The notes: a model not told the origin generated them from the letters alone. Positions 1 through 19,615 are shown, counted from the stretch's first letter. The stretch is 22,368 bases of DNA from an uncultured bacterium (GCA_965371515.1 CBDUYR010000046.1:1-22368), one strand, 5' to 3'. Numbers and translations: made by a program.

Positions 1-263
1 CTGCGGCGGGCGAGAATCCAGACGATCCACGCGGACTTGAGCGCTTCCTCGATAAAGGGAGCGACATATCTCGCATATGGGGTCAGCTCAAGCCCTGTCG
101 CAGGCTTGAGCTGTTGAGTAATAAAATAGGCTGCGACCGCCGCGACAGATCCGGCACTGAGGCTCGCAGCCACGTGACGGAAACGGACGAGCTTGAAGCT
201 GTCCATCGCCTTGAGGACGAGGAGGAACACGAGGACAGGAATGATTGCGATGAGGTAGTTCAA
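1..263 (-). CDS. prsW: PrsW-family glutamic-type intramembrane protease (5' part; runs off the window edge)
   Basis: Not in the ORF track. Manual translation from TTG at 263 (in-frame TGA just upstream at 290-288): MNYLIAIIPVLVFLLVLKAMDSFKLVRFRHVAASLSAGSVAAVAAYFITQQLKPATGLELTPYARYVAPFIEEALKSAWIVWILARR. Several hydrophobic helices plus the PrsW-type AP-x-x-EExxK motif. Starts 19 nt after the upstream gene's stop. Confidence 0.8.
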   Translation of the reverse strand, partial: MNYLIAIIPVLVFLLVLKAMDSFKLVRFRHVAASLSAGSVAAVAAYFITQQLKPATGLELTPYARYVAPFIEEALKSAWIVWILARR

Positions 264-282
264 CTTATAATATCTCTGCCTG

Positions 283-3200
283 TTACCTCAGTATCTTCAA
301 GGATAGCATCAACTCTTCCCTTGGGGCGTAGCCGTCCTCGAAGGCGAAGGCATAACCTGCCGAGAAGGTAGTCTGCAGGGAAGAGAAGAAGACGATCTTC
401 AGGTTGAGCTGCGAGCCGACGTTAGCAATCTCGACACCCTCATAGTCGGCGTCTACATTGGTCGCGATCGCCGAGCCGAAGAAGGCGAGGCTCGCCCAGT
501 TGGCGTAGAGCGACGGCCATCCGAGAGAGGAGAACCTCAGCGGCGGGAGCGTCCACTCGACCATTCCCTTGAGAAAGTTTGTGCCGCCGATCTCGTTGAG
601 CTCGACTCCGGGGAAGGTATAGAACTCTCTGTACCTGTCGACTCCCTGGTGGTCGACCCAGTTGTTCCCGAATCCCCCGAAGAAGAAGTATGAGTTCGAT
701 TCCTTCCTGTCGCCGAGGGAGAAGCCCCCCGACGTTCTGAGCCATATCGAGGAATGGTCCCACGGAAGAAGGAATCCATAATCAAGAGTGCTCCAGAATA
801 ATGGATAGAGCTCGCCATTGACCAGCGAGGAATATTCGTTGAGGGAGAATTTGATTCCCTTTTCCGCCTGTATCCCGCCTATCGTCCTCCGCACATGCCT
901 GTAATTCAGGGACCCTTCGAGGGTGTAGAAATCCTTCATCGTTGCCAGGATGTTCTGGTAATGGGGGAGGTATTCCAGGTTGCCGTAGGCGGCGGCCTTG
1001 ACGTTCAGTCCGAGTTTCTTCGGTCTGTCGACGATGAATCCGTAGTCATAGTTCAGGGCTAGCGAGTGCCCTTTCCTGCTGACCTTCGTCGGGCCAAAGA
1101 GGTCGTAGAAATCGGCACGGTTATAATAGCCGGTGGCGGCCCATCGGCCTCTGGAGTATTTGAACCTGAAATGACCCCGCTCGTTCTCCGGCAGGTTCGT
1201 GTTCGGCGTGTAGGAAACAGCCATGTCTAGGGCGTTTATACCGACTGGGTCCATCATGTTGAACCTCAGTCCGATGGTGCCGTAATCCTTGTATCCCTCG
1301 ACGATCGGGTAGAGCGACGTGACCCTGAGGTTCCGTGTCACCTTGTACTCGCCCTCGTACGTCTTCAGCGAGTCTATCTCGATCTCACGCGGCGAGCTCA
1401 GCATCCAGTCCTCCAGCTCGGGATGCTCTAAGATGACAGCCTGTCCGAGGTATTTTACAGCGTATATGTCTTCTATCGGGTTAACGGGGATCATGACCGG
1501 CTCGAATCCGCTGCCGGTGTACCTGAAGGTTATGAGCGAGTCGTCCGACACGGGCAGGGGCCGGAAGGCCCCGATCTCGAAGTTGCTCAGCGCTTCGATC
1601 TTCCATTCCTCGAAATCGAACCTGAAGATATTCGAGGTGCCGGTAGAGTAGGAGGTTCCGTAGAGATACCGCCCGTCGGCCGAGTGGACGAAGTTCGCCG
1701 CGTTGTTATCGGTGAACTCGTGAAGCAGTTCCCAGGTGCCGTCCCCGATCATCAGTCTCGCCGTTTCCATCCTGATCAGCCGCTGGTTGCCGCTTATGTC
1801 GGTCATGGTACCGGTGAGCCACTTCCCGTCGGGCGAGATGTCGATGTCGAACATGTCGTACCCGTACCTCAGCTTGAGCAGCTCGTACCCGTCCTCGTAC
1901 GGTGGAGGGAACATCACGATACTCGTGAATCCGTTGTCGTGCCTCATGCCCCAGATCGTCGAGTCTGCCCTGCTGTAGACGAGGTCGCCTGTCCGGTTAT
2001 CCTTGCAGAGTACCTTTGTCTTTCCCGTGGCGATGTCGACCGAGTTGAGGTCGCGAAAGCCCCTGCTGTTGTCTGTCGTGAAGAAGAGGGTCCCGCTCTC
2101 AGGATCATGAGCGAGGCCTGTGACGTAGTAGAGGGCCGGGGTCTCTATCTCGCAGATCTTCCTCATCTCTCCCGAGTCGATATTGATCGCCGCGATATGA
2201 GAGAACTCGCCGGGATAGTTCACAGCCGCGTAGAGCGTCCGGCTCTCCGCATCGAAGAACTCCCTCGAGACGGAGCCGAGCGCACGCTCGCAGAGCGGCC
2301 GGGCGGGTGTTACGGGATATTGACGTATCGAGTCGAGGTTTGTCTCCTGCCACTGTTTCTCGAATTCGATCCATTCGTTCCACTTCTCGTAGATCGAAGC
2401 GTCGAACACCTTGCGGAACTGGGTTGAGAAGTAGGCGCCGCTTCCCTCGTTACGGCGCACCCATTCGACCACCGAATCGGGGCCGTGCATCAGGGAGAGA
2501 TAGCTGAAGAAGCGCGTGCCGTAGAGGTACGACACCTGGCCGATCTGGAAATCCTTCGCCGTGCCCTCCGACTCCAGGCCAACAACGGTGTAGAACTCGA
2601 TGCTGTCGCGGACCATCGCCCTGAAGGTCATCTCGTCGTACCCGGTGAGCGACCGGCCGATCCCGCCCGCCATCCAGGTCTCCATGAATACGGCTATTCC
2701 CTCGTGGTACCACCTCGGTGCGTACAGGCGCGGCGTTGTGAGGTATGCGTAGAATATCGAGAGAGGGTCCTCGGCGACGGGGTGGACCTTGCCGAAGAAG
2801 AGCTTCCTGAACCGGGAATCCCACCCGGTCGCCTGGTCGGAGGCGGTAACATGGACGAGTTCGTGGTTCATCACCCAGTTCATCCGCTCGTTTGTCGGGC
2901 ACGTGTCGTAGACGTACTCGAAAGGTTCGATGCCGAGAGTGATCCAGTTGTTGGGGATCACTGTGGTTCCGGCATAACCGTAATCGTCGTCGTCGTTGAA
3001 GTAGACGGTCACCGGACCGCTCGGCGTGTAGTCGAAGAATTTCTGGTGATAGCGGAATGCGTTCTCGAAGCAGCGGGAAATGTGCTCTATGACGTACTCC
3101 TGCTCCTTGTAAAAGTAGAAGACCTTGAGGTCTTCCGTCTCGTACGTCCTGTATTTGAGCTGGTAGGGTTTTTCATCCTCGCTTTCGCTCGATGCCCGGC

Positions 3201-3285
3201 CCGGAACGAAACATATCGCCGCGGCGGCGATAAGGATAGGGATCGAGCGTGTGATGAATCCGGCTGTCGCTGTGAATCGATTCAT
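283..3285 (-). CDS. ~1000-aa exported multidomain protein: MA-clan (gluzincin-like) zinc peptidase + TolB/PD40-like beta-propeller + C-terminal Omp85/BamA-like beta-barrel
   Basis: Start moved from 3372 to ATG 3285 (AAGGGAAG RBS-like, followed by signal peptide MNRFTATAGFITRSIPILIAAAAICFVPGRASS). HELVH at 2851-2865 with downstream PRWYHEGIAVFME (third zinc ligand Glu, 2701-2703). Propeller blades DISPDGKWL, HSADGRYLY, HDPESGTLFF. C-terminal third has alternating aromatic beta-strands and BamA-like FFFGG...GGTNFLKGMVEWTLP. Confidence 0.8.
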   Translation of the reverse strand: MNRFTATAGFITRSIPILIAAAAICFVPGRASSESEDEKPYQLKYRTYETEDLKVFYFYKEQEYVIEHISRCFENAFRYHQKFFDYTPSGPVTVYFNDDDDYGYAGTTVIPNNWITLGIEPFEYVYDTCPTNERMNWVMNHELVHVTASDQATGWDSRFRKLFFGKVHPVAEDPLSIFYAYLTTPRLYAPRWYHEGIAVFMETWMAGGIGRSLTGYDEMTFRAMVRDSIEFYTVVGLESEGTAKDFQIGQVSYLYGTRFFSYLSLMHGPDSVVEWVRRNEGSGAYFSTQFRKVFDASIYEKWNEWIEFEKQWQETNLDSIRQYPVTPARPLCERALGSVSREFFDAESRTLYAAVNYPGEFSHIAAINIDSGEMRKICEIETPALYYVTGLAHDPESGTLFFTTDNSRGFRDLNSVDIATGKTKVLCKDNRTGDLVYSRADSTIWGMRHDNGFTSIVMFPPPYEDGYELLKLRYGYDMFDIDISPDGKWLTGTMTDISGNQRLIRMETARLMIGDGTWELLHEFTDNNAANFVHSADGRYLYGTSYSTGTSNIFRFDFEEWKIEALSNFEIGAFRPLPVSDDSLITFRYTGSGFEPVMIPVNPIEDIYAVKYLGQAVILEHPELEDWMLSSPREIEIDSLKTYEGEYKVTRNLRVTSLYPIVEGYKDYGTIGLRFNMMDPVGINALDMAVSYTPNTNLPENERGHFRFKYSRGRWAATGYYNRADFYDLFGPTKVSRKGHSLALNYDYGFIVDRPKKLGLNVKAAAYGNLEYLPHYQNILATMKDFYTLEGSLNYRHVRRTIGGIQAEKGIKFSLNEYSSLVNGELYPLFWSTLDYGFLLPWDHSSIWLRTSGGFSLGDRKESNSYFFFGGFGNNWVDHQGVDRYREFYTFPGVELNEIGGTNFLKGMVEWTLPPLRFSSLGWPSLYANWASLAFFGSAIATNVDADYEGVEIANVGSQLNLKIVFFSSLQTTFSAGYAFAFEDGYAPREELMLSLKILR

Positions 3286-3312
3286 CTTCTTCCCTTGAAT
3301 AAGATGCGGTAC

Positions 3313-3349
3313 GAAGGAGGCAGCCCGGTCAGTGCCGGGCTGCTCCTTC
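3313..3349 (-). terminator. Strong intergenic stem-loop between the repeat-protein gene and the peptidase/Omp85 gene (partial terminator or mRNA 3' stabiliser)
   Basis: GAAGGAGGCAGCCCGG-TCAGTG-CCGGGCTGCTCCTTC: 15-bp stem with one bulged base. No clear U-tract after it on the minus strand. Confidence 0.6.
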
Positions 3350-3393
3350 TTACCACACACCACTTCTTCCACTTCATGTCAAAGTCGAGATCC

Positions 3394-5349
3394 CTAGATC
3401 TCCCTGCGCATCGACGATCTCTCCATCATGGAGGCTCTGTTGAATATTGACGCCTTTTCCTGCAGCGAGGTGCGCCCCATTATCGAGGCCTTCTCCTGGA
3501 GGGAGGCCCTGTTGAATATCGATGCCTTTTCCTGGACCGAAGCGCGCCGCATGATGTTGGATTTCTCCTGGACCGAGAACCTGTCCATCAGGGACGCCTT
3601 CTCCTGGATCGAGAACTTGCCGATGATGGAGGCTTTCTCCTGCATCGGGAGCTTGTCGAAAGCTTCCATCGTTATCGAGGCCCTCTTTAGGATCGAAGTA
3701 CGGTCCTGCAGAGAGAGGCGCTGCATCAGTTCGGACCGCTCCTGGATCGAGGCGCGGTCGAATATCGAGGCCTTCTCCTGCATGCAGCAACGCTCGAACA
3801 TGTCGACCCGCTCCTGGATGTTTGCCTTGGCGAATATATTCGACTTCTCATGGATAGAAGACCTGTTGAAGATCATGGCCTTTTCCTGGATGTTGACCCT
3901 CTCCATCAGAGAGGACTTCTCCTGGATATTGGCCCGCTTCATCAGCGAGCTTTTTTCCTTAAGAGAGGCGCGCTCCATGATGTTGGACTTTTTCTGAAGC
4001 GAGAACCTGTCCATCAGGGAGGCCTTCTCCTGGATCGAGAACTTGCCGATGATGGAGGCTTTCTCCTGCATCGGGAGCTTGTCGAAGGCTTCCATCGTGA
4101 TCGAGGACTTCTTGAGGAGCGACCTGCGGTCCTGTACGGAGAAGCGCTGCATCAGCTCGACGCGCTCCTGGATAGTGGCTCGCTTGAATATCGAGGCCTT
4201 TTCCTGGATCGAACTGCGCTGCATGATATCGGAGCGCTCCTGGAGCGATGCCTTCTCGAAGAGGAAGGCCATGCCCATAAGGCTGGTCCTCTGCATGATC
4301 GCGGACTTCTCCTGTATCGTAGCACGCTGCATCAGGTCGGCCCTCTCCTGGAGCGATGCCTTCCGCATGATATTGGACTTCTCCTGGATCGAGAACCTGT
4401 CCATCAGGGAGGCCTTCTCCTGGATCGAGAACTTGCCGATGATGGAGGCTTTCTCCTGCATCGGGAGCTTGTCGAAGGCTTCCATCGTGAGCGAGTGCCT
4501 CTCGAGGATGGAAGTGCGCGCGTACGGTCCGAGCTCCTTGAAGACTTTCATCTTTCCCTGGATGGTGGCGCGCTTGAAGATCGCGGCCTTCTCCTGGAAA
4601 GTAGCCCTCTCGAGGATCGAGGCACGCTCGGCTATCGAGGCGCGGTTGAATATTGTCGCCCTCTGCTGTAGCGAGGACCGCTGCATGATGTCGAGTCTCT
4701 CCTGGATCGATGTGCGGTTGAAGATCGCCGCTTTCTGATGTATCGAGGCGCGCATCATGATATCGGCCTTCTCCTGGAGGGAAAGCCTCTCCATGATAGC
4801 GGCTTTTTCCTGGATAGTGGCTTTCTTCATCAGAGAGGCCTTCTCCTGGATGGAGAACTTCTCTATGATCGCGGCCTTCTCCTGCATCGGGAGCTTGTTG
4901 AACGCCTCCATTGTGAAGGATGTTCTCTTGAGGAGACCGGCCCCTTGCTGAAGCGCATAACGCTCGAACATCGAAATACGTTCCAGAGGGGTCGCGCGTT
5001 CGATCAGGGAAAAGCGCGCATGATCGATAGCAATAGAGGCGAATGCCGCTTTCTCCTGAATCGAAGACCTCTGCAGAAGGTTGGACTTCTCCTGGAGCGA
5101 AGTTCGCTCAAAGAGAGCCGCCATTTCCTCGGGAGAGATCGTGTTGTCCATCGTGTATTCCGACTCGTAATCCCCCTCGAAGTTCAGTACAACGTCCTTG
5201 TCGCTTATCTGCTGGTTACGATACTTGTCCACCGCTCCAATCGTTCCCTCAGCGCCGTCACGGCCTGTGGGAGGATGGAAGAAGGCGAAGTAGGCAACCA
5301 CTACGATTGCGATCAGGACAACCACCAGCAGAACCTTGTTCTTCCCCAT
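3394..5349 (-). CDS. 651-aa single-pass membrane-anchored tandem-repeat protein (12-aa helical repeats), function unknown
   Basis: Strong RBS AAGGAGGT upstream of ATG 5349. Basic N-terminus and hydrophobic segment aa 6-24. Residues 82-651 are repeats with consensus [RK]ASIQEKASI[MF]x. Confidence 0.9.
   Translation of the reverse strand: MGKNKVLLVVVLIAIVVVAYFAFFHPPTGRDGAEGTIGAVDKYRNQQISDKDVVLNFEGDYESEYTMDNTISPEEMAALFERTSLQEKSNLLQRSSIQEKAAFASIAIDHARFSLIERATPLERISMFERYALQQGAGLLKRTSFTMEAFNKLPMQEKAAIIEKFSIQEKASLMKKATIQEKAAIMERLSLQEKADIMMRASIHQKAAIFNRTSIQERLDIMQRSSLQQRATIFNRASIAERASILERATFQEKAAIFKRATIQGKMKVFKELGPYARTSILERHSLTMEAFDKLPMQEKASIIGKFSIQEKASLMDRFSIQEKSNIMRKASLQERADLMQRATIQEKSAIMQRTSLMGMAFLFEKASLQERSDIMQRSSIQEKASIFKRATIQERVELMQRFSVQDRRSLLKKSSITMEAFDKLPMQEKASIIGKFSIQEKASLMDRFSLQKKSNIMERASLKEKSSLMKRANIQEKSSLMERVNIQEKAMIFNRSSIHEKSNIFAKANIQERVDMFERCCMQEKASIFDRASIQERSELMQRLSLQDRTSILKRASITMEAFDKLPMQEKASIIGKFSIQEKASLMDRFSVQEKSNIMRRASVQEKASIFNRASLQEKASIMGRTSLQEKASIFNRASMMERSSMRREI
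3397..5142 (-). repeat. Intragenic 36-bp (12-codon) tandem repeat array, organised into higher-order blocks
   Basis: From R82 (5106): 44 twelve-residue units plus four 10-residue TMEAF[DN] units. One further degenerate unit (TISPEEMAALFE) precedes them. TTCTCCTG recurs at about 36-nt periodicity on the plus strand. Confidence 0.95.
3574..4490. repeat. Three near-identical 101-bp direct repeats (3574-3674, 4000-4100, 4390-4490); a divergent fourth copy at about 4816-4916
   Basis: 4000-4100 and 4390-4490 are identical by eye, and 3574-3674 differs at 3 positions. Spacings 426, 390 and 426 bp match protein super-repeats of 142, 130 and 142 aa. The copies encode TMEAFDKLPMQEKASIIGKFSIQEKASLMDRFS. 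Confidence 0.92.
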
Positions 5350-5406
5350 CTGATGACCTCCTTTTTGGGAATGGGTTTCTACCGCTCGCTAATTTACTGT
5401 TCACCC

Positions 5407-5435
5407 TAAATACAGCCGACTTCCCTCAATGTTGG
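5407..5435 (-). promoter_or_regulatory. Putative ECF-sigma promoter for the repeat-protein gene (CCAAC-N16-TGTATTTA)
   Basis: Minus strand reads CCAAC attgagggaagtcggc TGTATTTA, 57 nt upstream of ATG 5349. The same boxes and spacing occur in front of the sigma gene. Resembles SigW-type AAC-N16-CGTA geometry. Confidence 0.65.
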
Positions 5436-5454
5436 TCGGCCGCGCCGGATTATT

Positions 5455-6192
5455 TTATCCGCCGGCGACGAATCTCATGGCTGTGACCGTTTTGCCGTCG
5501 GTGAAGATACGCAGCACGACAGCCGCGGTCTCCGCCGATCTGAACCTGATGACGTATTTAGCCTTGCCTTGATGTACGAGCAGGAGGCTCTTCTCGTCGA
5601 CTTCCATCTGGTAGGCCGCTCCCTCGTTCGATCTGATCGACTCGAAAGAGACGTCGCCCTCGAACTCGAGGAGGACGCTGGTCTCCACATCGGAAGCCAG
5701 GTCTATCGTGACAGTCATGGAGCTGCTTTCTACTACGGGCAGCACGCTTCCCTTGACGCCGAAGGCATCGAATGCTTCGGTAGAGCTTTTCTCACTTTCA
5801 GCGGCTCCGATCGTCGCTCCGTAACCGTTTTCCTCCGGTGTCCGGTCAGTAAACGGACTTATCGCAGCGAATATGATGAATCCCGCCGCGACACCGGCGG
5901 CGAAGACGGGAGCGAATGACCGCCAGAAGGTGCGTCCGCCCGCTGCCTGTACCGAGATCTCCTCCCGGGAGCGCCCGTATATCGAATCGAATATCCTCGC
6001 CCTGAGCTCCGGGGGAGGCTCGAGCTCTCCCGCGCCGTCTATGGCTCCGACCGTTTCTTTCAGTTCCTCATAGTACATTTGAGCCTCGGGATCGGACTTT
6101 ATATAAGCGGCGAGCTTTTCCGCGTTCCCGCCGGATATGATCCCGTCGATCTCCTCGTTCATCAGCCTTATGTAGAATTCGTCTATGCTCAT
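5455..6192 (-). CDS. Membrane-spanning anti-sigma factor (ZAS-like N-terminal helices lacking zinc ligands, one TM, extracytoplasmic beta-rich domain)
   Basis: Begins 3 nt after the ECF sigma stop. N-terminus LMNEEIDG...EKLAAYIKSDPEAQMYYEEL...PPPELRARIF follows the anti-sigma domain pattern. TM FAPVFAAGVAAGFIIFAAI. Confidence 0.8.
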   Translation of the reverse strand: MSIDEFYIRLMNEEIDGIISGGNAEKLAAYIKSDPEAQMYYEELKETVGAIDGAGELEPPPELRARIFDSIYGRSREEISVQAAGGRTFWRSFAPVFAAGVAAGFIIFAAISPFTDRTPEENGYGATIGAAESEKSSTEAFDAFGVKGSVLPVVESSSMTVTIDLASDVETSVLLEFEGDVSFESIRSNEGAAYQMEVDEKSLLLVHQGKAKYVIRFRSAETAAVVLRIFTDGKTVTAMRFVAGG

Positions 6193-6195
6193 GAT

Positions 6196-6726
6196 TTACC
6201 CTGCCCCGGTGAGAATTTCCTTCATCCGCTGTCTTGCCGAGTAGAGCCTGGACTTCACCGTCTTCTCGGGAATCCCCAGCACGTCGCCCATTTGACGGTA
6301 AGAGAGGTCGACGAAATGTCTGAGGATGATGGCCACCCTCTGATCCTCGCCGAGTTTCTTCAGCGCGGACTGCACGAGCCCGTTCGACTCCTTGCGTATG
6401 ATCTGCTGCTCCGGCCCCGGAGCGCGGGAGGGGAGGTCGAACTCGATGTGCACGATCCTGCGCTGTCTTTTCACCTGGTTCAGGGATTCGTTGACGCCCA
6501 TCCTGTAAAGCCAGCTGAAGAACTTCCTCGATGGATCGAAGGTCTCCAGCCTTTCGAAGGCCTTTACAAATACTGTCTGTGTGACATCCATGGCATCCTC
6601 GTAGTCGCCGCAGATCCTGAACGCGAGGTTGAAGATCCGTCGTTCGTACTTCTCCACTAGCCTTCCGAACGCTTCCCTGTCTCCATTGAGCGTTTCGATA
6701 ACCAGCGATGAATCCGTTGTCGACAT
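6196..6726 (-). CDS. ECF-family RNA polymerase sigma factor (SigW/RpoE-like)
   Basis: Region 2: GDREAFGRLVEKY...DAMDVTQTVFVKAF...FFSWLYRMGVNESLN. Region 4: LSYRQMGDVLGIPEKTVKSRLYSARQRM. Start ATG 6726 (MSTTDSS) preferred over 6792; start uncertain. Confidence 0.93.
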   Translation of the reverse strand: MSTTDSSLVIETLNGDREAFGRLVEKYERRIFNLAFRICGDYEDAMDVTQTVFVKAFERLETFDPSRKFFSWLYRMGVNESLNQVKRQRRIVHIEFDLPSRAPGPEQQIIRKESNGLVQSALKKLGEDQRVAIILRHFVDLSYRQMGDVLGIPEKTVKSRLYSARQRMKEILTGAG

Positions 6727-6754
6727 AAATACAGGCCAACCGCGAAAAAGTTGG
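6726..6754 (-). promoter_or_regulatory. Putative autoregulatory ECF promoter motif (CCAAC-N16-TGTATTTA) abutting the sigma start codon
   Basis: Minus strand reads CCAAC tttttcgcggttggcc TGTATTTA(TG), matching the copy at 5407-5435. Overlaps a GCCAAC-N9-GTTGGC inverted repeat. Confidence 0.55.
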
Positions 6755-6915: not shown

Positions 6916-7203
6916 TTACTTTATGTCAAATATAAAGTCGAAGCCGGCAATCGTGAAGATATCGCGGATGTGAGGGGTCATGTTAGCGATCTCGAGTTTG
7001 TAACCGTTGTCGTTGAGCCGTTTCTGGGTGGCGAGAAGGAGGCCGAGTCCGGCGCTGGAGATGTAGCGAAGTTCAGCGAAGTCTATGGTCGTCGTAGATC
7101 CCACTTTCTCGAGGATCTCCCTGGTCATGTTGACCTGGTTCGAATCGAGCCTTCCGTTGAGCCTGATCGTCCCGTCGCCCGCTACCGTAATGTCGAACAT
7201 CAT
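6916..7203 (-). CDS. STAS-domain anti-sigma-factor antagonist (RsbV/SpoIIAA-like)
   Basis: 95 aa. LNGRLD, IDFAELRYISSAGLGLLL (phospho-Ser motif), IRDIFTIAGF. ATGA overlap with the upstream kinase gene. Confidence 0.93.
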   Translation of the reverse strand: MMFDITVAGDGTIRLNGRLDSNQVNMTREILEKVGSTTTIDFAELRYISSAGLGLLLATQKRLNDNGYKLEIANMTPHIRDIFTIAGFDFIFDIK

Positions 7204-7604
7204 TCGTCCTCCAGGCGTTTTCTAGCCGTGACAACAAGAGTACCCTCATCGTAATCATAATCGAGCCCGTCCGCCATCTTTTTCACGAGATGGATGCCGA
7301 GCCCGCCTGGCTCGCGTTCCATCAGTGGTGCCTTCGTGTCCACATCCCCGAGAGAGTCACCGTCGAACGGCTCCGTGTCCCGGTCGGTCAGTCGGATGGT
7401 CAGGAGATCGTCTTCCAGTTCGATCTCTATCTCGATTACGTCGGTCCCCGGCGCATGCCGCACGAGGTTAGTGAAGAGTTCTTCCAGCGTCAGGTCGAGA
7501 AAGTACGATTGAGAGTCGTCGAAACCGTTATCGTTCTCGAACTCGCCGGCGAACGTGAATATCCCGTCGAGTGATTCGAGATCTCTCCTGAAGTTTCTCT
7601 GCAT
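7200..7604 (-). CDS. Anti-sigma regulatory factor / Ser kinase (RsbW/SpoIIAB-like HATPase)
   Basis: Start moved to ATG 7604 (GGAAGGA RBS; MQRNFRRDLESLD, 134 aa). N-box LEELFTNLVRHA, DRDTEPFD, G2 box PGGLGIHLVKKMAD. Confidence 0.9.
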   Translation of the reverse strand: MQRNFRRDLESLDGIFTFAGEFENDNGFDDSQSYFLDLTLEELFTNLVRHAPGTDVIEIEIELEDDLLTIRLTDRDTEPFDGDSLGDVDTKAPLMEREPGGLGIHLVKKMADGLDYDYDEGTLVVTARKRLEDE

Positions 7605-7802: not shown

Positions 7803-8708
7803 ATGAAGATCGGCATGATCGGGCTGGGGAAGATGGGCGGCAACATGGCTGAGCGGCTGATGAAAGGCGGACACGAGATCGCGGGGTACGCCCGTCACGA
7901 GGAGACGGTCCGCGCCTTCGAGGAGAAGGGTGGAAGGGGGGCCGGCTCGATCGCGGAGCTGGCGGGGATGCTTGAAGCCCCGAGGATCGTCTGGCTGATG
8001 GTGCCGGCCGGAGGCCCGGTCGACTCGGTGATAGAAGAGCTGATGCCTCATCTCGATGAGGGCGATATCCTCATCGACGGGGGGAACTCACGGTATACGG
8101 ATACGAAAAGGCGAGCCGCAGCTCTGCTGGAAAAAGGGCTGAACATGGTTGATGTCGGCACGAGCGGAGGTGTGTGGGGACTGGCGGAAGGATACAGCAT
8201 GATGGTGGGCGGGGAGAAAGCGGCGGTCGATACACTCCGGCCTGTCCTCGAGACTCTCGCACCCGCTCCCGATATGGGATGGGGACATGTCGGCCCGTCC
8301 GGAGCCGGTCACTTCGTCAAGATGGTGCACAACGGGATCGAGTACGGGATGATGCAGGCGTTCGCCGAAGGATTCGCGATAATGAAGGCGAAGGAAGAGT
8401 TCGACATAGATCTCCACGCTGTATCGGAGATTTGGCGGTACGGAAGCGTAGTCCGCTCCTGGCTCCTCGACCTGATCGCGGATGCCCTGGACGGCGACGA
8501 GGATCTCGCCGGTATAGCGCCGTTCGTTTCCGATTCGGGGGAAGGCAGATGGACGGCGATCGAGGCGATCGATCTCGGTGTTCCCGCGCCGGTGATCTCA
8601 CTGGCCCTGTCAGAGAGGTTCCGCTCGCAGGATGACAATTCTTACGCCGACCGGCTGCTCGCCGCAATGAGGAACCAGTTCGGCGGACACGAGATGAGGT
8701 CGAAATGA
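7803..8708 (+). CDS. gnd: 6-phosphogluconate dehydrogenase, decarboxylating (short-chain, 301 aa)
   Basis: Start ATG 7803 after GGAGGT. IGMIGLGKMG Rossmann motif, LMVPAG, IDGGNS, DVGTSGG, GAGHFVKMVHNGIEYG, DSGEGRW, AMRNQFGGH. Confidence 0.96.
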   Translation: MKIGMIGLGKMGGNMAERLMKGGHEIAGYARHEETVRAFEEKGGRGAGSIAELAGMLEAPRIVWLMVPAGGPVDSVIEELMPHLDEGDILIDGGNSRYTDTKRRAAALLEKGLNMVDVGTSGGVWGLAEGYSMMVGGEKAAVDTLRPVLETLAPAPDMGWGHVGPSGAGHFVKMVHNGIEYGMMQAFAEGFAIMKAKEEFDIDLHAVSEIWRYGSVVRSWLLDLIADALDGDEDLAGIAPFVSDSGEGRWTAIEAIDLGVPAPVISLALSERFRSQDDNSYADRLLAAMRNQFGGHEMRSK

Positions 8709-10150
8709 ACATACCTTCGCACATCTTCACGATATTCGGCGCCAGCGGCGACCTGACAAAGAGAAAGATCCTGCCCGCGCTGTTCCATCTTTTCGCAGAA
8801 GAGAGGATAGGCCCCGACTGCATAGTCGTCGGCACCGGCAGAAAACCGATGGACGACGAGACGTTCAGGGCCCTGACGCTAGAGGCCCTTTCTGAATCTG
8901 GTCTCGGGGGGGGAGAGGGCGCGGCGAAATGGTGCACCGGATGTGTCTTCTACCATTGTCTCGGGGACGGATCGGCCGGGAATTACACACTTCTCGGGGA
9001 GAGACTCTCAGAGCTGGAGAAGGAACACGGCATCCCCGGGAACAGGGCCTTCTATCTCGCGCTGCCGCCCGACGCCTTCCCACCTGTCATAGAGAATATC
9101 GGCGAGGCCGGACTTGCCGACTCGGAAGGGTGGTCGAGGCTCGTCATAGAGAAGCCGTTCGGCCGTGACCTGGATTCAGCGGAAAAGCTCAATGAGCATA
9201 TACATCGCTGGTTCGATGAGGACCAGATCTACCGGATAGACCACTATCTCGGCAAGGAGACGGTTCAGAACCTCCTCGTCTTCCGCTTCGCAAACGCGAT
9301 TTTCGAGTCGATATGGAACCGCGATCGTGTCGACCACATACAGATCACGGTGGCCGAGTCCCTCGGCGTTGAGCACCGGACGAAATACTACGATACGGCC
9401 GGAGCGGTAAGGGACATGGTACAGAACCACATCGCCCAGCTGCTGACCCTGATCACGATGGAGGTGCCCGGCGCGTTCGAAGCCCGCGCGATAATGCAGG
9501 AGAAGATCAAGGTCTTGCGGAGTATCACGCCGCTTCAACCGAAGGACATCGTTCTCGGGCAGTACGACGCTGGAGATGAGATGCCAGGGTACCGCGATGA
9601 AGAAGGGACCGGCGAGGACTCCGCGACACCGACTTTCGCCGCCGTCCGGCTTCATGTCGATACGTGGAGATGGAAGGGGACCCCGATTTATATCAGGACA
9701 GGCAAGAGGATGCCGGTAAAGACGACGCAGATCTCGGTTGTATTCGAAAATCCGCCGGTCTGTTTCTTCCAGACGATGGAAGGATGCACGCTTCGTCCCA
9801 ATGTCCTTAACATCACTATCCAGCCCGACGAGAGTTTCACGCTCTCTTTCGACGTCAAGAAACCGGGCGAGCCGTTTACTCTTGAGCCGCAGGATCTTCA
9901 CTTCAGCTATGCCGATACATTCGGCAGGCTGCCCGACGCCTACGAGACCCTTCTTCTCGATATCATGACGGGCGATCAGACACTCTTCGTCCATGCCGAC
10001 GAAGTGGAGGCCTCCTGGAAACTCTTCGAGCCGGCGCTTGACCGTGGACTGCCGCTGGCGCGTTACGCGGCCGGGACATGGGGGCCGGATGAAGCGGCAG
10101 AACTGCTCCTGCAGGACGGCCGCGCCTGGTCGGTCAGGCGGGGCGGGTAG
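8705..10150 (+). CDS. zwf: Glucose-6-phosphate 1-dehydrogenase
   Basis: IFGASGDLTKRK, IEKPFGRD, YRIDHYLGKETVQN, RDMVQNH, DAYETLL. ATGA overlap with gnd. Confidence 0.98.
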   Translation: MNIPSHIFTIFGASGDLTKRKILPALFHLFAEERIGPDCIVVGTGRKPMDDETFRALTLEALSESGLGGGEGAAKWCTGCVFYHCLGDGSAGNYTLLGERLSELEKEHGIPGNRAFYLALPPDAFPPVIENIGEAGLADSEGWSRLVIEKPFGRDLDSAEKLNEHIHRWFDEDQIYRIDHYLGKETVQNLLVFRFANAIFESIWNRDRVDHIQITVAESLGVEHRTKYYDTAGAVRDMVQNHIAQLLTLITMEVPGAFEARAIMQEKIKVLRSITPLQPKDIVLGQYDAGDEMPGYRDEEGTGEDSATPTFAAVRLHVDTWRWKGTPIYIRTGKRMPVKTTQISVVFENPPVCFFQTMEGCTLRPNVLNITIQPDESFTLSFDVKKPGEPFTLEPQDLHFSYADTFGRLPDAYETLLLDIMTGDQTLFVHADEVEASWKLFEPALDRGLPLARYAAGTWGPDEAAELLLQDGRAWSVRRGG

Positions 10151-10152
10151 AG

Positions 10153-10896
10153 ATGCAGCGCGCCGTTCGCGTATTCGATGACCTCGAATCGATGAGCGTT
10201 GCCGCGGCCGCGGCGGTTGTGGAACTGGCCGCAGGATCGCCCGGCCCATTCTCGATCGCCCTCGCAGGAGGAGGCACTCCGCGCCGCCTTTACGAGATAC
10301 TCGCTGAAGATTCTGCCGGCATCGACTGGGAGAAGGTTCACCTCTTCTGGGGTGACGAGAGATTCGTCTCTACCGGCGATCCTGAAAGCAATTTCGGAAA
10401 TATCCGACCGGTTCTTCTCGACAGGATCGATATCCCCGATGGAAACATTCACGCCATCCCCGTCGATGCGCCGACAGCGGTCGATGCGGCGGAGATATAC
10501 GAGAAGGAACTAAAGGACTTTTTCGGGATTCAGGAAGATGGATTCCCCGAGTTCGACCTGATCCTGCTCGGCCTCGGCGATGACGGACACACCGCTTCGA
10601 TATTCCCCGGAGATTCCGTAATCGAAGAGAGGCACAAGTGGGTTTCGTCCGTGACTGGACCGGCGGGTATCGAACCGGCGGAGCGAGTCACACTCACCCT
10701 TCCGGTCCTGAATGCAGCAGGAAATATCTTCCTCCTCGTCTCGGGGGAATCGAAGGCCGATGTCCTTCACGACATACTCTTCGCCGGCCGGCTGGCTGAA
10801 GCAGAATATCCCGCAGCGATGATCTCTCCCGACGGCCCGCTCGTATGGTTCATCGACCGGGCGGCATATGGCGGCGACCCCGATTCCTGCCGGTGA
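10153..10896 (+). CDS. pgl: 6-phosphogluconolactonase
   Basis: IALAGGGTP, LFWGDERFV, FDLILLGLGDDGHTASIFP, RVTLTLP. Follows zwf by 2 nt. Confidence 0.96.
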   Translation: MQRAVRVFDDLESMSVAAAAAVVELAAGSPGPFSIALAGGGTPRRLYEILAEDSAGIDWEKVHLFWGDERFVSTGDPESNFGNIRPVLLDRIDIPDGNIHAIPVDAPTAVDAAEIYEKELKDFFGIQEDGFPEFDLILLGLGDDGHTASIFPGDSVIEERHKWVSSVTGPAGIEPAERVTLTLPVLNAAGNIFLLVSGESKADVLHDILFAGRLAEAEYPAAMISPDGPLVWFIDRAAYGGDPDSCR

Positions 10897-10900
10897 ATAC

Positions 10901-10929
10901 TTGATTATATCCCCGACAACGGTTAATCT
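10901..10929 (+). promoter_or_regulatory. Putative sigma70-type promoter for the nitroreductase/ATP-grasp pair
   Basis: TTGATT-N17-TAATCT immediately after the pgl stop, 37 nt before ATG 10967. Confidence 0.4.
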
Positions 10930-10966
10930 CCTTTTCATGTTTTCCAAGATGCGAAAGGAGACCCCG

Positions 10967-11701
10967 ATGAGATACCTGACGATTGTACTGCTTGCGGCCT
11001 GTATCCTGATGCCCTCGGGTGCGTGGAGCGGCAAGTATACCCTCGAGCACAACGCTCTCGCGACAATAGAACTGCCGAAGCCTGTCCTGGACAGCGAGTT
11101 CTCGATAGAGAAGGTCCTCCAGGAGCGAAGATCGGTCAGGAGCTATACAGATGAGCCCGTTACGCTGGAAGAGGTCTCCCAGCTTCTCTGGTCCGCCTAC
11201 GGGATCACGTACACGAGGGAGGGTCTGCCCGATTTCATACGCGGGGGATTCAAGACAGCGCCGTCAGCCGGGGCCCGATATCCGCTCGAGATATATCTCG
11301 TCGCCGGTAACGTCAGTGGCCTTCTGCCCGGGATCTACTGGTACGTTCCCGAAGGCCACGTGATCCACAGGCTCGTCGACGGCGATGTCCGGATCGACCT
11401 CCAGGCCGCGTGCCTCAGTCAGAAGTTCGCAGGCGAGGCGCCGATCTCGATCGTCTGGTCTGCCGTCTACGAGAGATGCACGGAGAAATACGGGGAGCGC
11501 GGCACAGACAGGTACGTCTGTATGGACCTCGGTCACTCGGCTCAGAACGTTTACCTCCAGTGCGGATCGCTCGGGCTCGGAACCTGCGCCATCGGCGCCT
11601 TCACAGACGATTCACTGAAGAATCTGATCGGCATGACCGAAGAAGAAGTGCCGCTGTACGTAATGCCTGTGGGAAGGCTTCCGAGGGAACATAAAAAATG
11701 A
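10967..11701 (+). CDS. SagB/ThcOx-family FMN-dependent dehydrogenase (nitroreductase fold) with N-terminal signal peptide
   Basis: Start ATG 10967 after AAAGGAG. RRSVRSY, VSQLLWSAYG, TAPSAGARYPLEIY, DLGHSAQNVYL, LGLGTCAIGAF. N-terminus MRYLTIVLLAACILMPSGAWS. Confidence 0.9.
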   Translation: MRYLTIVLLAACILMPSGAWSGKYTLEHNALATIELPKPVLDSEFSIEKVLQERRSVRSYTDEPVTLEEVSQLLWSAYGITYTREGLPDFIRGGFKTAPSAGARYPLEIYLVAGNVSGLLPGIYWYVPEGHVIHRLVDGDVRIDLQAACLSQKFAGEAPISIVWSAVYERCTEKYGERGTDRYVCMDLGHSAQNVYLQCGSLGLGTCAIGAFTDDSLKNLIGMTEEEVPLYVMPVGRLPREHKK

Positions 11702-12867
11702 TAATCCTCGACAGGCCGTACGTGTCCGACTTCCTCGCCTCGACCCTTCAGCGCCTCCGGACGCCTGTGCTGCGTAACGGCGTCTCCGAGGCTATTGCCG
11801 AGGAGTACGATCTCAACCTTATCGACGAGGTGGAATTCGCCGCCAGGGCCAACAAGGAAAAGTATCCACTGATATATACCAGCTCTGAGGATGCGATAGG
11901 GTGGATCGCGAAGAACCTCGAACCGTCCGGACTGCCCGCCAGGATCGACCGGTTGAAAAACAAGATCCATTTCCGCAGCATGATCGAAGAGGATCATCCC
12001 GGTTTTTTCTATGCCGGTATCGATCTCGAGGCGCTGCGGCACCTTGATCCATCCGAACTTCCCAAGCCGTTTATCGTAAAACCCGCCGTGGGATTCTTCA
12101 GCGTAGCGGTCCGCAAGGTAGAATCTGATGCCGAGTGGCCCGCCGCACTGAAGTCCATAGAGGAGGATCTCGAAAGTTTCGGGGGGATGTATCCCGGACA
12201 AGTATTTGATCCGGGTAAGTTTATTATCGAGGAAGGCATAAAGGGTGAGGAGTTCGCGATCGACGTCTATTACGACGAGATCGGCCGGCCCGTGATCCTC
12301 AATGTCCTTCATCATCTCTTCTCTTCGGGGACCGATGTCAGCGATACTACATATGTTACTTCGAAAAGGATCGTCGAATACGGGCTACAGATGTTCACAG
12401 GACCGCTCGCCCGTATCGGGAAGCTGGCCGACCTGAAGAATTTCCCGATCCATATCGAGATGAGAGTAGACGGTCGTGACATCGTTCCTATAGAGGCCAA
12501 TCCGATGAGATTTGCGGGCTTCGGCGGGACGGATTTCGGTTGGTATGCCTGGGGAATAAATACTCACGAATATTTTCTCGAGCGAAAGATACCCGACTGG
12601 AAGGCGATATTTGACGGGAAAGAAGATCGCGTCTACTCGATGTATGTAGCTTTCATACCCGAGGATGTTTCCGTCTCAAGGGTAAAGGATATAGATTACG
12701 ATGGCTTCGTGGCCAACTTCACGAAGGTGCTGGAACTCCGTAAGACAGACTGGCGCAATTATCGCGTCTTCTCCTTCGTCTTTACGGAAACAGGTCCGGA
12801 GACCGCATCCGAGATCGAGCGGAACCTCCAGCTCGACCTCTCTCCATACGTACTTATGAAGGACTGA
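11698..12867 (+). CDS. ATP-grasp domain protein (putative amino-acid/peptide ligase)
   Basis: PFIVKPAVGFFSVAVRKV, IIEEGIKGEEFAID, HIEMRV, PIEANPMRFAG. ATGA overlap with the upstream gene. Confidence 0.88.
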   Translation: MIILDRPYVSDFLASTLQRLRTPVLRNGVSEAIAEEYDLNLIDEVEFAARANKEKYPLIYTSSEDAIGWIAKNLEPSGLPARIDRLKNKIHFRSMIEEDHPGFFYAGIDLEALRHLDPSELPKPFIVKPAVGFFSVAVRKVESDAEWPAALKSIEEDLESFGGMYPGQVFDPGKFIIEEGIKGEEFAIDVYYDEIGRPVILNVLHHLFSSGTDVSDTTYVTSKRIVEYGLQMFTGPLARIGKLADLKNFPIHIEMRVDGRDIVPIEANPMRFAGFGGTDFGWYAWGINTHEYFLERKIPDWKAIFDGKEDRVYSMYVAFIPEDVSVSRVKDIDYDGFVANFTKVLELRKTDWRNYRVFSFVFTETGPETASEIERNLQLDLSPYVLMKD

Positions 12868-12889
12868 GGCTGTCTTCGCCGGTCAGTCC
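12861..12889. terminator. Possible bidirectional hairpin spanning two convergent stop codons
   Basis: GGACTGA-GGC-tgtcttc-GCC-gg-TCAGTCC. No U-tract. Confidence 0.3.
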
Positions 12890-15800
12890 GAAACGACAGG
12901 GAATATCTTTCTGCCGAGTATCTTCAGATCTTCCAGTATCAGGTAGAGGCTCGGGATTATAATCAGGGTTATCCCCGTTGCGAACAGCACACCCCATCCG
13001 AGTCCGGCAGCCATCGGGATGAGGAACCTTGCCTGAAGAGATCTCTCGAGAAGCATCGGCGTCAGACCTATGAACGTCGTTAATGAGGTGAGTATGATCG
13101 CCCTGAACCTCAGCTCGCCGGCGGTGCTGATCGATTCTATCGCCGTCCTGCCGCCCCCGTGAATCCTGTTCGTCGCCTCGATCAGTACGAGCGAGTCGTT
13201 CACGACCACTCCCGACAGGCCGACTATTCCGAAGAGGCTCATCATATTCAGATCGTAGCCCATCACGATGTGGCCCAGGACTGCTCCAACCATTCCAAAG
13301 GGGATCGCCGTCATTACTATGAGCGGTTGTGTGAACGATTTGAAAGGTATGGCGAGGAGCGCATAGATCAGGAAAAGCGCTATGACGAACGACTTGAGGA
13401 TCGACGACATGAATTCCTGGTCTTCGCGTCCCTCTCCTTCGACGGCGAACCGGACGTCGGGATGTGATTCACGCATAGCGGGAAGTATCGTTGTCTCCAA
13501 TGCGCGGTTTACCTCTGTATTGTTGGCCTGTCCCTCCTCGATATCGGCCGATACGGCGATGACCCGCTTTCTGTCAGCCCTCGAGATGGTCGCATAGCCC
13601 TGGACGGTGTTTACCTCGGCGACCTGCCTGAACGGTACCTCGGTGCCGTCCGGCATGCGGATCCGCATACCGCTGACGTTTCCGATCGATCTGCGTTCAT
13701 CGTCCGGGTATCGCACGAGGACTTTGACCTCGTCCTCGCCTATCTGCATGCGCAGGGCCTCGGAGCCGTAGAAGGCGGCCCTTACCTGGCGGGCAAGATC
13801 GCTCAGCGTCAGACCGAGACTTCTCGCTTCATGTTTGAGTTTGAGCTGCATCTCCTGCTTGCCGGGCATGTAGTCGTCGGCGACCTCGATCAGTCCGGGG
13901 TACGCATTCAGTTCGGTCTTGAGGGCTTCGACAGCTTCGAAGAGTTTGACGTTGTCGTCTGACGAGAGGTGTACCTCGATCGGTGCGTTCACCCTTCCTG
14001 TCTGCCCCTTGAACGAGACAGCTTCGGCATCGGGGATTCGCCCGACCTTCTTGCGCCATTGGCCGACGAGGTATCGAGACTTGATGTTTCTCTTTTCTCC
14101 CTCGAGAAGCTGAATGTGTACCTGGGCCAGGTGCCCGCCTATCTCAAAAGTAGCGAAAGGTCCATGTCCGCCCATATGGACCCCGATCAGTGTGAAATAT
14201 TCCTCCATCACGGACGGTGCGTCATCGGGCCGCCGGCTGTCCGCCTCCTTCATCGTCTCGAGAGCGGCCTGTTCTATACGGGCAAGCACCTCCTCGGTAC
14301 GGCTGACCGGCGTACGCGGAGGCATCACTACGGAGCATGAGAGATAGTCCGCATCGAGGCGCGGCATCAATGTAAGCTTTATCCGCCCGCTGGCGATGAT
14401 GCTTATCGTGAAGATCAGAAGGGCCACACCGACTGCCACAGTGACATATCTCCACTTAAGGCAGAGCGCGAGAAAACGCCTGTAAGGTCCCCTTACAAAG
14501 TCTTTTAACCATCTGTCAGCCAGCTTGGTCCGCGTCTCTCCCGGATTATGGTTGAATGTCTTGAACCGGCTTCTGGCAAGATGAGCAGGCAGTATCAGGA
14601 GCGCCTCGATCAGCGATCCGGCCAGGACGGCGATGACCACGATCGGGATATTGCGCATGAAGTTTCCGCGGGTTCCCGGTAACATCAGGAGGGGCCAGAA
14701 AGCCGCTATCGTCGTCAGTACGGCGAAGATGACCGGCTTGCTCACCTGCGAGGCTCCCTGGACGGCCGCCTCAAATGGCGGGACCCCTTTCTCGCGCTTC
14801 CTGTATATGTTCTCGCCGATGATGATCGCGTCATCGACGACGATTCCCAAGATCAGTATAAATCCGAAGAGTGAGATCATGTTGATCGAGATACCGAAAA
14901 GGGGAAGCAGCCACAGGCCCGTGGCGAAAGATATCGGTATACCCATCGTTACCCAGAAGGCGAGTTTCACGTTGAGGAAGAGCGACAGGAGAATGATGAC
15001 GAGGACGAGTCCGAGCGCCATATTCTTGATGAGGAGACTGATCCTGCTTTTGAGGAGGGTCGATCTGTCCTGAAAAAATACCGCGTCCATTCCCTCGGGC
15101 AGATCGTCGCGGATGTCTCCGACGTACCTCTTCACTGTGGATGCCACCTCGAGTGCGCTCTGGTCGGCGACGCGGTAGACCTCGATGAAAGCAGCCGGTT
15201 TACCTCTCGTGGAGACCTTCAGATCGTTGTCTTCGAATCCGTCGGTGAGTGTGGCAATCTGTCCGAGCGTGACTTTCGACCCGTCGGGGCGCGCTATTAC
15301 AGCGATGTCGGCATACTCGTCGGCAGTATATCTGCGGCCCTTTGTCCTTATGAGGACCGTCCCTTCCTTCGACCTGACCGAACCGGCGGGAAGGTCCAGG
15401 CTGGATTTCTGCACGATGGCCGCGACCTGGTCGAGCGTCAGCCCGTATCGCCTGAGGTTTGTCTCCGAGATATCGATATGGATCTCGGCGCGCCGAACGC
15501 CGAAGATCTCGACGAGGGTTATACCGTGCATATTGACCAGATCGCTCTTCATCTTCTCGGCGAGATGCTTGATCGTCGATTCCGGCGCGTCGCCGTACAG
15601 GGCAATATTTATCACCTGTATCTTGCGCACGATCTGCCTGACGATAGGTTTCTCAGCCTCGTTGGGGAAGGTCCTGATGCGGTCTACCTCGCTCTTGACA
15701 TCGTTGGTCAGATCGACGAGGCTCCATCCGCTGAGGAGCTCGATCGTGACGGTTCCGAATCCCTCGCGAGCCGATGCGGTGATCCTCTTAATCCCGGCAA

Positions 15801-18679: not shown

Positions 18680-18719
18680 ATATCTTCCTGCAATCAAGAT
18701 TGATGATGGCCGAATCAGC

Positions 18720-18728
18720 ATTTTATCA
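18720..18728 (-). promoter_or_regulatory. Putative extended -10 promoter (TGATAAAAT) for the efflux operon
   Basis: TGnTAAAAT in an AT-rich intergenic stretch, 40 nt upstream of TTG 18679. Confidence 0.4.
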
Positions 18729-18787
18729 AATATCTCCGAAATTATCTAACGTCATGCTATCGAATAATAATATTTCGGGCGAAAGCG

Positions 18788-18812
18788 CTGCCTTGACCGG
18801 GGTCAAGCGCAG
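18788..18812. promoter_or_regulatory. Palindrome CTTGACC-GG-GGTCAAG (TTGAC-N4-GTCAA): operator-like site or terminator hairpin
   Basis: Perfect 7-bp arms at 18792-18798 and 18801-18807, extendable by CTGC/GCAG with one bulge. Confidence 0.45.
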
Positions 18813-18823
18813 TCGAGTTCCTC

Positions 18824-19270: not shown

Positions 19271-19303
19271 TGTCAATTCCTTCCCTGCTCGTCTGCCGGA
19301 CCG

Positions 19304-19615
19304 TTACACGAACGGCGAGGAGAAGAGCATGCTCGCCGGATCGTCGAGCAGCTTCACGGCCAGGTCCTGGTACGGCACGATGCCGGTCGACAGGGTCCAT
19401 GCCACGAGGGCTAGTGCGGCCGCCGCCGCGGCAATCGAGACGCGAAGGACGAGGCTGCTGAATCCGTTGGTCGAGGAATATTCCGCAGCGGACGAAGCAG
19501 TCCTGATCGTGGACATGACGCCCGCCTTCCAGTCCTCTCCCGGATTGATCTCGCCGGCATCCCGCCATCCGGCGGCGAGGAGCCTGTCGATCCTGTCCCT
19601 TTCATTCTGGTTCAT
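19304..19615 (-). CDS. Small single-pass anti-sigma factor (putative)
   Basis: 103 aa, ATGA overlap with the ECF sigma stop. IDRLLAAG...PGEDWKAGVMSTI then TM VSIAAAAAALALVAWTL. Confidence 0.7.
   Translation of the reverse strand: MNQNERDRIDRLLAAGWRDAGEINPGEDWKAGVMSTIRTASSAAEYSSTNGFSSLVLRVSIAAAAAALALVAWTLSTGIVPYQDLAVKLLDDPASMLFSSPFV

Follow-up and report, generated by a model that had tools for sequence, protein, structure and literature searches.

A conserved locus of diderm bacteria pairing a PrsW protease with a repeat precursor and an Omp85-type fusion protein, and its candidate role in precursor release and export

What would bring an intramembrane protease of the PrsW family, a membrane-anchored repeat protein, a predicted outer-membrane protein carrying its own zinc peptidase, and a sigma factor of the extracytoplasmic function (ECF) type with its anti-sigma into a single run of genes? 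The question is raised by a contig of an uncultured bacterium (GCA_965371515.1 CBDUYR010000046.1:1-22368), which I will call the window, meaning the whole stretch of 22,368 nucleotides (nt), contig C46 in full, from a genome of 3.08 Mb. The original prediction, made for positions 1..6754, described five co-oriented and tightly packed genes, and the coordinates bear this out, since the sigma, anti-sigma, repeat, Omp85-fusion and prsW genes all lie on the minus strand with gaps of only 3, 105, 108 and 19 nt; the extent given for the module was too small, as the unit numbers seven genes once the STAS and RsbW-like genes outside 1..6754 are counted. In this article I will argue that the feature is real, conserved and, as far as the searched literature goes, undescribed; that release of a precursor and its handling by a dedicated outer-membrane protein quite probably form its core; and that a self-inducing circuit of precursor release, maturation and export, yielding short peptides, is the fuller reading to prefer for now, tentatively and with a little less than an even chance of being right.

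The case begins with conservation. Species-representative genomes were scanned, and the best 80 of 248 stretches gave 74 loci labelled, for example, Krumholzibacteriota, Eisenbacteria, Ignavibacteria, KSB1, Calditrichota, Rhodothermales and Acidobacteriota, so that several diderm phyla are represented, the closest relatives (among them Candidatus Krumholzibacteriota) sharing 85-91% identity in the large Omp85-fusion protein. Among the loci listed in the gene maps the order is rsbW-STAS-sigma-anti-sigma-precursor-barrel-prsW, and when presence is counted only where enough flanking DNA is available (informative loci), the precursor is found in 49/49, PrsW in 62/62, sigma in 45/45, STAS in 42/42, RsbW in 42/42 and the anti-sigma in 45/47. 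Three rearranged loci retain all seven genes, L109 and L070 have RsbW/STAS with sigma and anti-sigma absent, and a protein cluster represented by a GAF-SpoIIE phosphatase is present in 25 of the 74. These counts show linkage and not independent events, because the loci are kin and were chosen by query similarity; even so, the original prediction had staked itself on synteny elsewhere, and the genes are syntenic across phyla. The loci of two homologues labelled Thiomargarita (P0043) and Pseudomonadota (P0012) are not included, a search of plasmids and viral contigs returned no relatives, and neither did a first metagenome scan with P0025 as its sole query.

A metagenome scan with distant alignment, of which the best 80 of 556 were taken, brought in 47 loci that group with Bacteroidales-labelled proteins, and here the module is stripped down: the precursor is present in 34/36 and PrsW in 29/30, and the anti-sigma in 0/29, sigma in 2/25, STAS in 0/24 and RsbW in 0/22. 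Judged by gene content, the irreducible core is thus the repeat protein, the Omp85 fusion and PrsW, with sigma and anti-sigma as accessories. That PrsW is kept in 29 of 30 loci with no anti-sigma nearby (a distant one being possible) supports a link between PrsW and the repeat protein, for which the original prediction had proposed release by proteolysis; a cut by PrsW is still a prediction. One locus, L251, has a different, short PrsW at the same position, and P0025 is a single protein in which PrsW, a signal-like segment and the Omp85 protein are fused, with four members of equal length.

What, then, would PrsW be cutting? The precursor of the window (3394..5349, minus strand, 651 amino acids (aa), with a Shine-Dalgarno-like site at 5356-5363) is built from a basic tip, a membrane helix, a conserved leader (5206-5247 plus about 10 residues) and degenerate 12-residue repeats, and all precursors have in common the leader D-h-x-G-T-I-G...K-Y-R-x-E-Q-I-x-x-x-D-V. 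Leader matches occur in 56/151 genomes of the phylum (7 of them weak), mostly once per genome, and where a genome appears in both searches, the leader accompanies the Omp85 fusion in 20/20, and a strong leader occurs in 0/26 genomes lacking the fusion. The anti-sigma (5455..6192, minus strand, 245 aa; NF052375 E=9e-8, under the cut-off) comprises an anti-sigma domain, a single membrane helix at 5860-5907, a juxtamembrane motif at 5803-5820 and a periplasmic domain of about 110 aa, and has only the first half of the leader motif. The TIGA motif that had been noticed in both proteins is indeed there, its family-wide form being D-h-x-G-T-h, located 10-15 residues past the membrane helix in precursors and mostly 14-16 in anti-sigmas; it recurs in 23/32 further anti-sigmas (two of which repeat training loci), compared with 16/249 background single-helix open reading frames (ORFs) and 0/5 other anti-sigmas of the genome. 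More telling still, the anti-sigma domain is fused directly onto the precursor in 9/54 loci (L043, L056, L065, L072, L074, L082, L083, L085 and L087), at about 8 separate places in a quick tree of 45 loci where two of the nine form a clade, and in all nine, judged by eye, the free precursor retains a start codon and ribosome-binding site of its own inside the fusion gene, which would thus yield two in-frame products. There, the agent that frees the precursor, whichever it is, would cut the anti-sigma as well, and this is the strongest support for the proposed feedback of a shared proteolysis on the sigma factor; it is the shared motif and the fusions that point to PrsW cleavage of the locus anti-sigma, with the feedback itself, as claimed originally, still to be phrased as a prediction.

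The same site invites a different protease. Signal peptidase I might make the first cut at a small-x-G site of both proteins, with PrsW clearing the anchor or sensing and the later steps unchanged, and this would suit a -3 residue that is mostly A, V, T or L, a last residue that is G, and sister precursors (see below) that bear ordinary signal peptides. Signal peptidase usually cuts nearer the helix, however, and the site here lies 10-16 residues past an 18-residue helix; moreover, F or Y occupies -3 in 10/39 anti-sigmas, and PrsW tracks exactly the anchored-type precursors and is not found beside the signal-peptide type. Despite the precedent of signal peptidases as the site-1 proteases of RsiV and RsiP, given in a passage of PMC8844934, I consider this version very unlikely.

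For PrsW itself, only the first 87 aa lie in the window (1..263, minus strand, truncated by the contig end, with EExxK at 36-50), and a search of the assembly for the rest gave no further match; PrsW proteins of relatives are about 340 aa long with a conserved C-terminal domain. Across 60/60 full-length homologues the EExxK and FxxxE motifs and a pair of His motifs are invariant, and the family match to PF13367 is 67.8 bits against a cut-off of 23.5 for the 80%-identical L031 protein, the window fragment alone falling below it. The NF033739 equivalog reached 32.5 bits of the 225 required, and by these scores the locus PrsW is a separate subfamily. Under the positive-inside rule, charge bias predicts periplasmic catalytic residues and a cytoplasmic tail of about 130 aa, for which ESM Atlas returned matches under 0.9.

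The partner protein of 1000 aa (283..3285, minus strand) combines a zinc peptidase, a PD40 propeller and, in its C-terminal third, what is best called a divergent Omp85-type barrel, as predicted from profiles. HELVH lies at 2851-2865 and the third-ligand Glu within 2698-2712, and the HExxH plus downstream Glu of the gluzincin (peptidase MA) pattern is invariant in 70/70 homologues, with Peptidase_MA_2 at E=8e-5 for P0001, below the cut-off. The propeller is seen as a weak PD40 match in the window protein, as PD40 in 7/18 members and as weak TolB and lactonase structure matches, scores being mostly below cut-off, and a PDB sequence search with the large protein gave weak propeller matches only; no POTRA domain was matched in it or in the members scanned. 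The barrel scores 17.7 bits with Omp85_2, below the cut-off of 23.1, and hhalign of the C-terminal domain against the C-termini of eight PD40-Omp85 paralogues gives P=92% and E=5e-7 over 288 columns (reversed control E=0.16), compared with 48 columns only at E=0.007 against six BamA/TamA-like proteins. The predicted peptidase-propeller-Omp85 fusion is accordingly upheld by homology to the paralogue profile and left weaker by two missing signatures of the barrel, to which I return below. The genome has a large Omp85 repertoire, with 11 PF01103 matches, and two stand-alone propeller-Omp85 homologues are encoded at G000:C7:72242-75201 and G000:C54:1992-5303.

The most instructive clue to the product comes from a sister clade of this fusion protein. 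In a tree made by a quick method (62 rows, 22/58 branches open), the PrsW-linked clade has 96% support and the sister clade 97%, and the two are joined at 100% against the stand-alone paralogues. A tandem-repeat gene lies directly upstream in 8/8 sister loci (4 truncated by contig ends), and PrsW, ECF sigma, anti-sigma, STAS and RsbW are all absent from the 8 sister stretches fetched. In these precursors a short signal peptide and a V-E-x-A-x-R-Y-R leader are followed by near-perfect tandem 16-mers, each joining a constant spacer to a 7-residue aromatic-basic core that varies, and most of the proteins stop at the border of a unit; homologues number 75, and unannotated examples lie at L242:7869-8585, L243:12589-12957, L244:7394-7714 and L246:11548-11865, with further ones listed as P0272-P0346. 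In 5/8 sister loci the flanks carry Opp permeases, that is, a peptide importer, together with a Ser/Thr kinase that has AAA and TPR parts, a sigma-54 activator is confirmed in L242 with look-alike ORFs in L243 and L246, and, measured against the -24/-12 consensus, a similar site precedes 3/4 complete sister precursor genes. The leaders of both clades align with a score of 14.0, above the 10.85 that was the best of 30 column shuffles. From the neighbourhood and this leader alignment, it is plausible that the sister machine matures tandem peptides as part of signalling, the sister loci look like a complete peptide-signalling circuit in Ignavibacteria, and PrsW plausibly appears where an anchor replaces the signal peptide. 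Near-identical units of the kind expected of multi-core precursors are found in the sister clade and in some members of the PrsW clade, core-like repeats being seen within the latter in L127, L100 and L277, with the 12-mers of the window degenerate. Two histidine kinases also adjoin sister-type precursors, and the sister proteins P0027, P0030 and those of L242, L243 and L246 have an extra N-terminal stretch of about 260 aa (a weak AMIN match) that is also present on other proteins there.

The mechanism that these observations suggest can now be put together. The sequences themselves show the gene order, the promoters, the motifs, the intact catalytic residues, the fusions, the three-gene core and the sister clade, and from them are inferred the protease responsible for each cut, the export, and what the product is and does. 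PrsW would likely cut the anchored precursor at the juxtamembrane D-h-x-G-T-h site and free it, the conserved leader would likely be captured by the zinc peptidase-propeller-barrel protein, and the zinc peptidase would likely chop the precursor into short peptides that leave through the barrel; that one cut by PrsW would also, it is predicted, destroy the anti-sigma and thereby increase transcription of sigma and precursor. By analogy with the sister clade, the product would most likely be extracellular signalling peptides. Export or assembly by the Omp85 fusion, as first proposed, keeps its conditional standing, and the sister clade suggests that the repeats may be cut into peptides and not assembled intact.

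Could the product nevertheless be an intact protein? In such a scheme PrsW frees the repeat protein, the zinc peptidase trims only the leader and the barrel exports a folded solenoid or rope to serve as a surface fibre, adhesin or matrix polymer in the style of two-partner secretion. The repeats of the window match MgtE_N, whose fold I take to be a helical superhelix, at 67 bits (cut-off 25.9), which suggests that they are folded, and matches to STI1 and GerD in other precursors also exceed their cut-offs; the window precursor further carries a 142-residue super-repeat, helix-capping patterns with periods mostly of 9, 12, 18 and 24 run through 86 precursors, and a conserved helical domain of about 225 aa is found in Bacteroidales-type precursors, where comparison with PDB and Pfam gave chance-level matches only. 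An intact product sits less easily with units of 5-20 residues that lack a common sequence and are in some cases Gly/Pro-rich and non-helical, with sister substrates that are plainly tandem peptides, with orphan precursors of about 110-125 aa that are too short for a fibre, and with the absence of any catalytic, toxin or adhesin domain in the 24 precursors scanned. The bodies after the leader, 89-799 residues beyond the motif, are unrelated between lineages, many Bacteroidales-type precursors end in Q/N-rich repeats with inserted basic/aromatic 6-9-mers recurring at the C-terminus, and the same inserted-mer pattern is seen in the precursors of L100 and L277. On balance I regard the intact fibre as unlikely. 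An alternative left-handed beta-helix reading (from LpxD/LpxA matches) was dropped in favour of helix-capped 12-mers because all of its matches were under cut-off and are explained by 6-residue periodicity; a type IX secretion-like or beta-signal reading of some precursor tails, made by eye, was also dropped, the window's clade being without such tails, and ESM Atlas gave no usable precursor match. As side observations, L276 and L277 each have two precursor paralogues, those of L277 with their own promoter-like sites and differing non-helical repeat units, and the precursor bodies of L072, L185 and L084 carry a strong acidic net charge (-29 to -38), in contrast to the window protein, which is basic.

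The stem-loop between the precursor and Omp85 genes (3313..3349, minus strand, no U tail) bears on the same question, since it would raise precursor output relative to the machinery, and a hairpin favouring excess product also speaks for the fibre. This hairpin, too, had been predicted and holds up well, with z = -5.4 and 0/200 shuffles as stable, and it recurs in relatives, z being below -2 in 60/84 window-type loci and 13/42 Bacteroidales-type loci (a rough estimate from 8 shuffles each); codon bias, taken with 8 reference genes as a proxy for high expression, is weak and points neither way. A GGRGATGC-like stem sequence often appears across phyla beyond structural need (L050, L055, L089, L092, L095, L104, L123, L181, L183 and L198) and is possibly an element recognised by a protein or nuclease.

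Regulation offers the next test of what the locus is for. The sigma factor (6196..6723, minus strand, 175 aa; TIGR02937 120 bits against a cut-off of 42.9) has SigW as its best-scoring named model at 118 bits, the SigW equivalog cut-off of 209 not being reached, and an ECF group assignment was set aside, a matching context being absent from the main text of PMC7826278 and part of one supplement. Promoter-like motifs before the sigma and repeat genes had been described, and they are found at 6727..6754 (33.9 bits, the best site of the genome) and 5408..5435 (23.2 bits), both on the minus strand and conserved in relatives: CCAAC-N16-TGTA precedes 47/50 sigma genes, usually with ATG immediately after, and 34/54 precursor genes. 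Since the sigma ATG directly abuts promoter 1, a leaderless mRNA is predicted. A matrix of 72 sites from other genera, the window's genus left out, finds just these two sites above a threshold of 18 bits in the genome, which makes the locus itself the whole of the predicted regulon. In shuffled versions of the genome, three in number, 1, 0 and 1 such sites turned up, so the weaker site leans on its position and conservation. A generic sigma-70 promoter and terminator scan had no match above chance. The RsbW-like anti-sigma kinase (HATPase_c_2 by Pfam; 7200..7604, minus strand, 134 aa) and the STAS anti-sigma antagonist (Pfam/NCBIfam; 6916..7203, minus strand, 95 aa, its start overlapping the rsbW stop) keep the N-box in 45/47 and the serine motif in 39/47 matches, respectively, and, often with a nearby GAF-phosphatase, would gate the loop, possibly through the cytoplasmic domain of PrsW. 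Orphan short precursors under the same ECF promoter lie far from the machinery at L115:6181-6507, with a Trp-rich tail at its end and then the same stem type, and at L117:6319-6882.

This regulatory layer could also be the whole point, in which case the locus would be an envelope-stress system of the SigW-RsiW-PrsW kind without export: the periplasmic repeats would act as bait, sponge or ruler, the outer-membrane peptidase would degrade the repeat protein or incoming peptides, and sigma activation would be the output. In its favour, STI1-type repeats bind hydrophobic helices; the SigW-like sigma factor and the nine loci in which the precursor is the outer part of the anti-sigma speak for it as well, as does the role of PrsW as site-1 protease of RsiW (PMC8767453). 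A pure sensor would be left without an output, however, because the predicted regulon is the locus alone; the three-gene core persists without sigma or anti-sigma nearby (though a distant sigma is possible); and the sister clade runs the same machine with another regulator set. I judge the stress sensor somewhat less probable than the intact fibre.

The short-peptide product thus remains favoured over the intact fibre, the pure stress sensor and release by signal peptidase, in that order, and the findings that weigh against it deserve to be set out together. The homology of the two leaders spans just 11 columns; homology of the window repeat to the sister 16-mer was looked for with a sister-repeat matrix and not found (8.3, below the 11.7 +/- 1.2 of its own shuffles), and this matrix placed only L127 of 30 precursors clearly above shuffles. 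The window repeats match a folded helical family over the cut-off, and the STI1/GerD matches of others fit intact solenoids; the window units are also degenerate, which a signalling peptide need not tolerate. An Opp-type importer or other peptide sensor is not conserved beside window-type loci, the shared juxtamembrane site is equally in keeping with the signal peptidase I -3/-1 rule, and the loci are kin selected for likeness to the query. As for the barrel, none of the PF01103 matches falls at its gene, and VRG[FY], the hallmark motif of Omp85 loop 6, is absent from the corresponding region (about 604-684), where a conserved [ST]FPG follows an insertion. A bolder generalization, which I put forward as speculative and rather doubtful, would see here a widespread, undescribed family of peptide-based cell-to-cell circuits in diderms in which an Omp85 barrel bears its own maturation protease, the sister branch completing its circuit by way of Opp, a TPR kinase and sigma-54, and the window branch using PrsW as a regulated signal peptidase whose one cut launches the precursor and frees the ECF sigma.

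Outside the module, the window carries on the plus strand (7803-12867) the gnd-zwf-pgl pentose phosphate genes, after which come an ATP-grasp protein and, ahead of it, a member of the nitroreductase family whose N-terminus is signal-like, and on the minus strand (12883-20882) a second ECF sigma accompanied by a small membrane protein, by two further small proteins of no assigned family and by RND efflux genes (OEP, HlyD, AcrB), which looks like an ordinary envelope or efflux module. Elsewhere in the genome four STAS matches and an RsbW-like gene cluster at G000:C29:2057-9011, a possible input to the partner-switching pair of the locus.

If the peptide reading is true, it would give a catalogued and uncharacterized Omp85 subfamily its first substrate and function, PrsW a second job as a dedicated release protease, and diderm phyla, Bacteroidales-type lineages included, a form of peptide signalling that would not usually be expected there; even an intact product would mean that helical repeat proteins have a new, leader-directed route of secretion. 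A laboratory host can express the three-gene core as well as the short precursors of the sister clade, which opens the question to direct testing. The combination had not been recognized as a characterized system, and full-text literature, with few subscription papers covered, likewise gave no description of it and never mentioned Omp85, PrsW and ECF together, a WD40-Omp85 term occurring in two papers.

How does the locus compare with systems that are known? For the WD40-like Omp85 subfamily a BamA-BamB-like role has been proposed, and the word 'peptidase' is absent from the main text of that work (Heinz and Lithgow, 2014; PMC4104836); the locus protein resembles it in having an N-terminal propeller, an Omp85-type barrel and no POTRA match, and is homologous over its whole length to stand-alone peptidase-PD40-Omp85 paralogues. 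In contrast, the locus clade branches separately on the tree, has neither VRG[FY] nor a terminal aromatic residue, and sits after a repeat precursor in nearly every informative locus. With the Bacillus subtilis SigW-RsiW-PrsW system, where PrsW is the site-1 protease of the anti-sigma RsiW, it shares an ECF sigma, a single-helix anti-sigma, a motif-intact PrsW and an autoregulated promoter (sections of PMC8767453 and PMC8844934). It differs in that PrsW is encoded within the operon, carries an additional C-terminal stretch of about 130 aa and is retained without an anti-sigma, in that the predicted regulon is two sites at the locus and not a multi-gene stress regulon, and in adding a second substrate, an outer-membrane protease and RsbW/STAS beside an ECF sigma. 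PrsW has also been proposed, in parts of Zhang et al. (2012; PMC3482391), as a release protease fused to the toxin domains of polymorphic toxins, mainly in Gram-positives, and release of an exported product is common to both. Here, however, PrsW is a separate gene with an Omp85 partner, toxin domains occur in 0/24 precursors, and the precursor is directly followed by the Omp85 gene and not by an immunity gene. In two-partner (type Vb) secretion, a repeat-rich TpsA cargo with an N-terminal recognition segment is encoded alongside its dedicated TpsB partner of the Omp85 superfamily. The locus likewise pairs one Omp85-superfamily protein with a repeat cargo that has a conserved N-terminal segment (compare passages of PMC4104836), whereas it has no two-partner secretion or POTRA match in Pfam/NCBIfam, its transporter carries its own protease, and its cargo is membrane-anchored and helical or peptide-like. 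Further parallels are the peptide quorum sensing of Gram-positives, which employs a precursor, a protease, Opp and a TPR sensor, and the multi-core precursors of ribosomally synthesized and post-translationally modified peptides. Unlike these, the loci described here belong to diderm hosts, have no modifying enzymes that could be seen, would mature their product at an outer-membrane protease-barrel and, in the window's clade, lack a conserved importer; like them, the sister clade combines precursors of tandem cores with Opp and with a TPR-bearing kinase plus sigma-54 activator, and both clades are predicted to be autoregulated.

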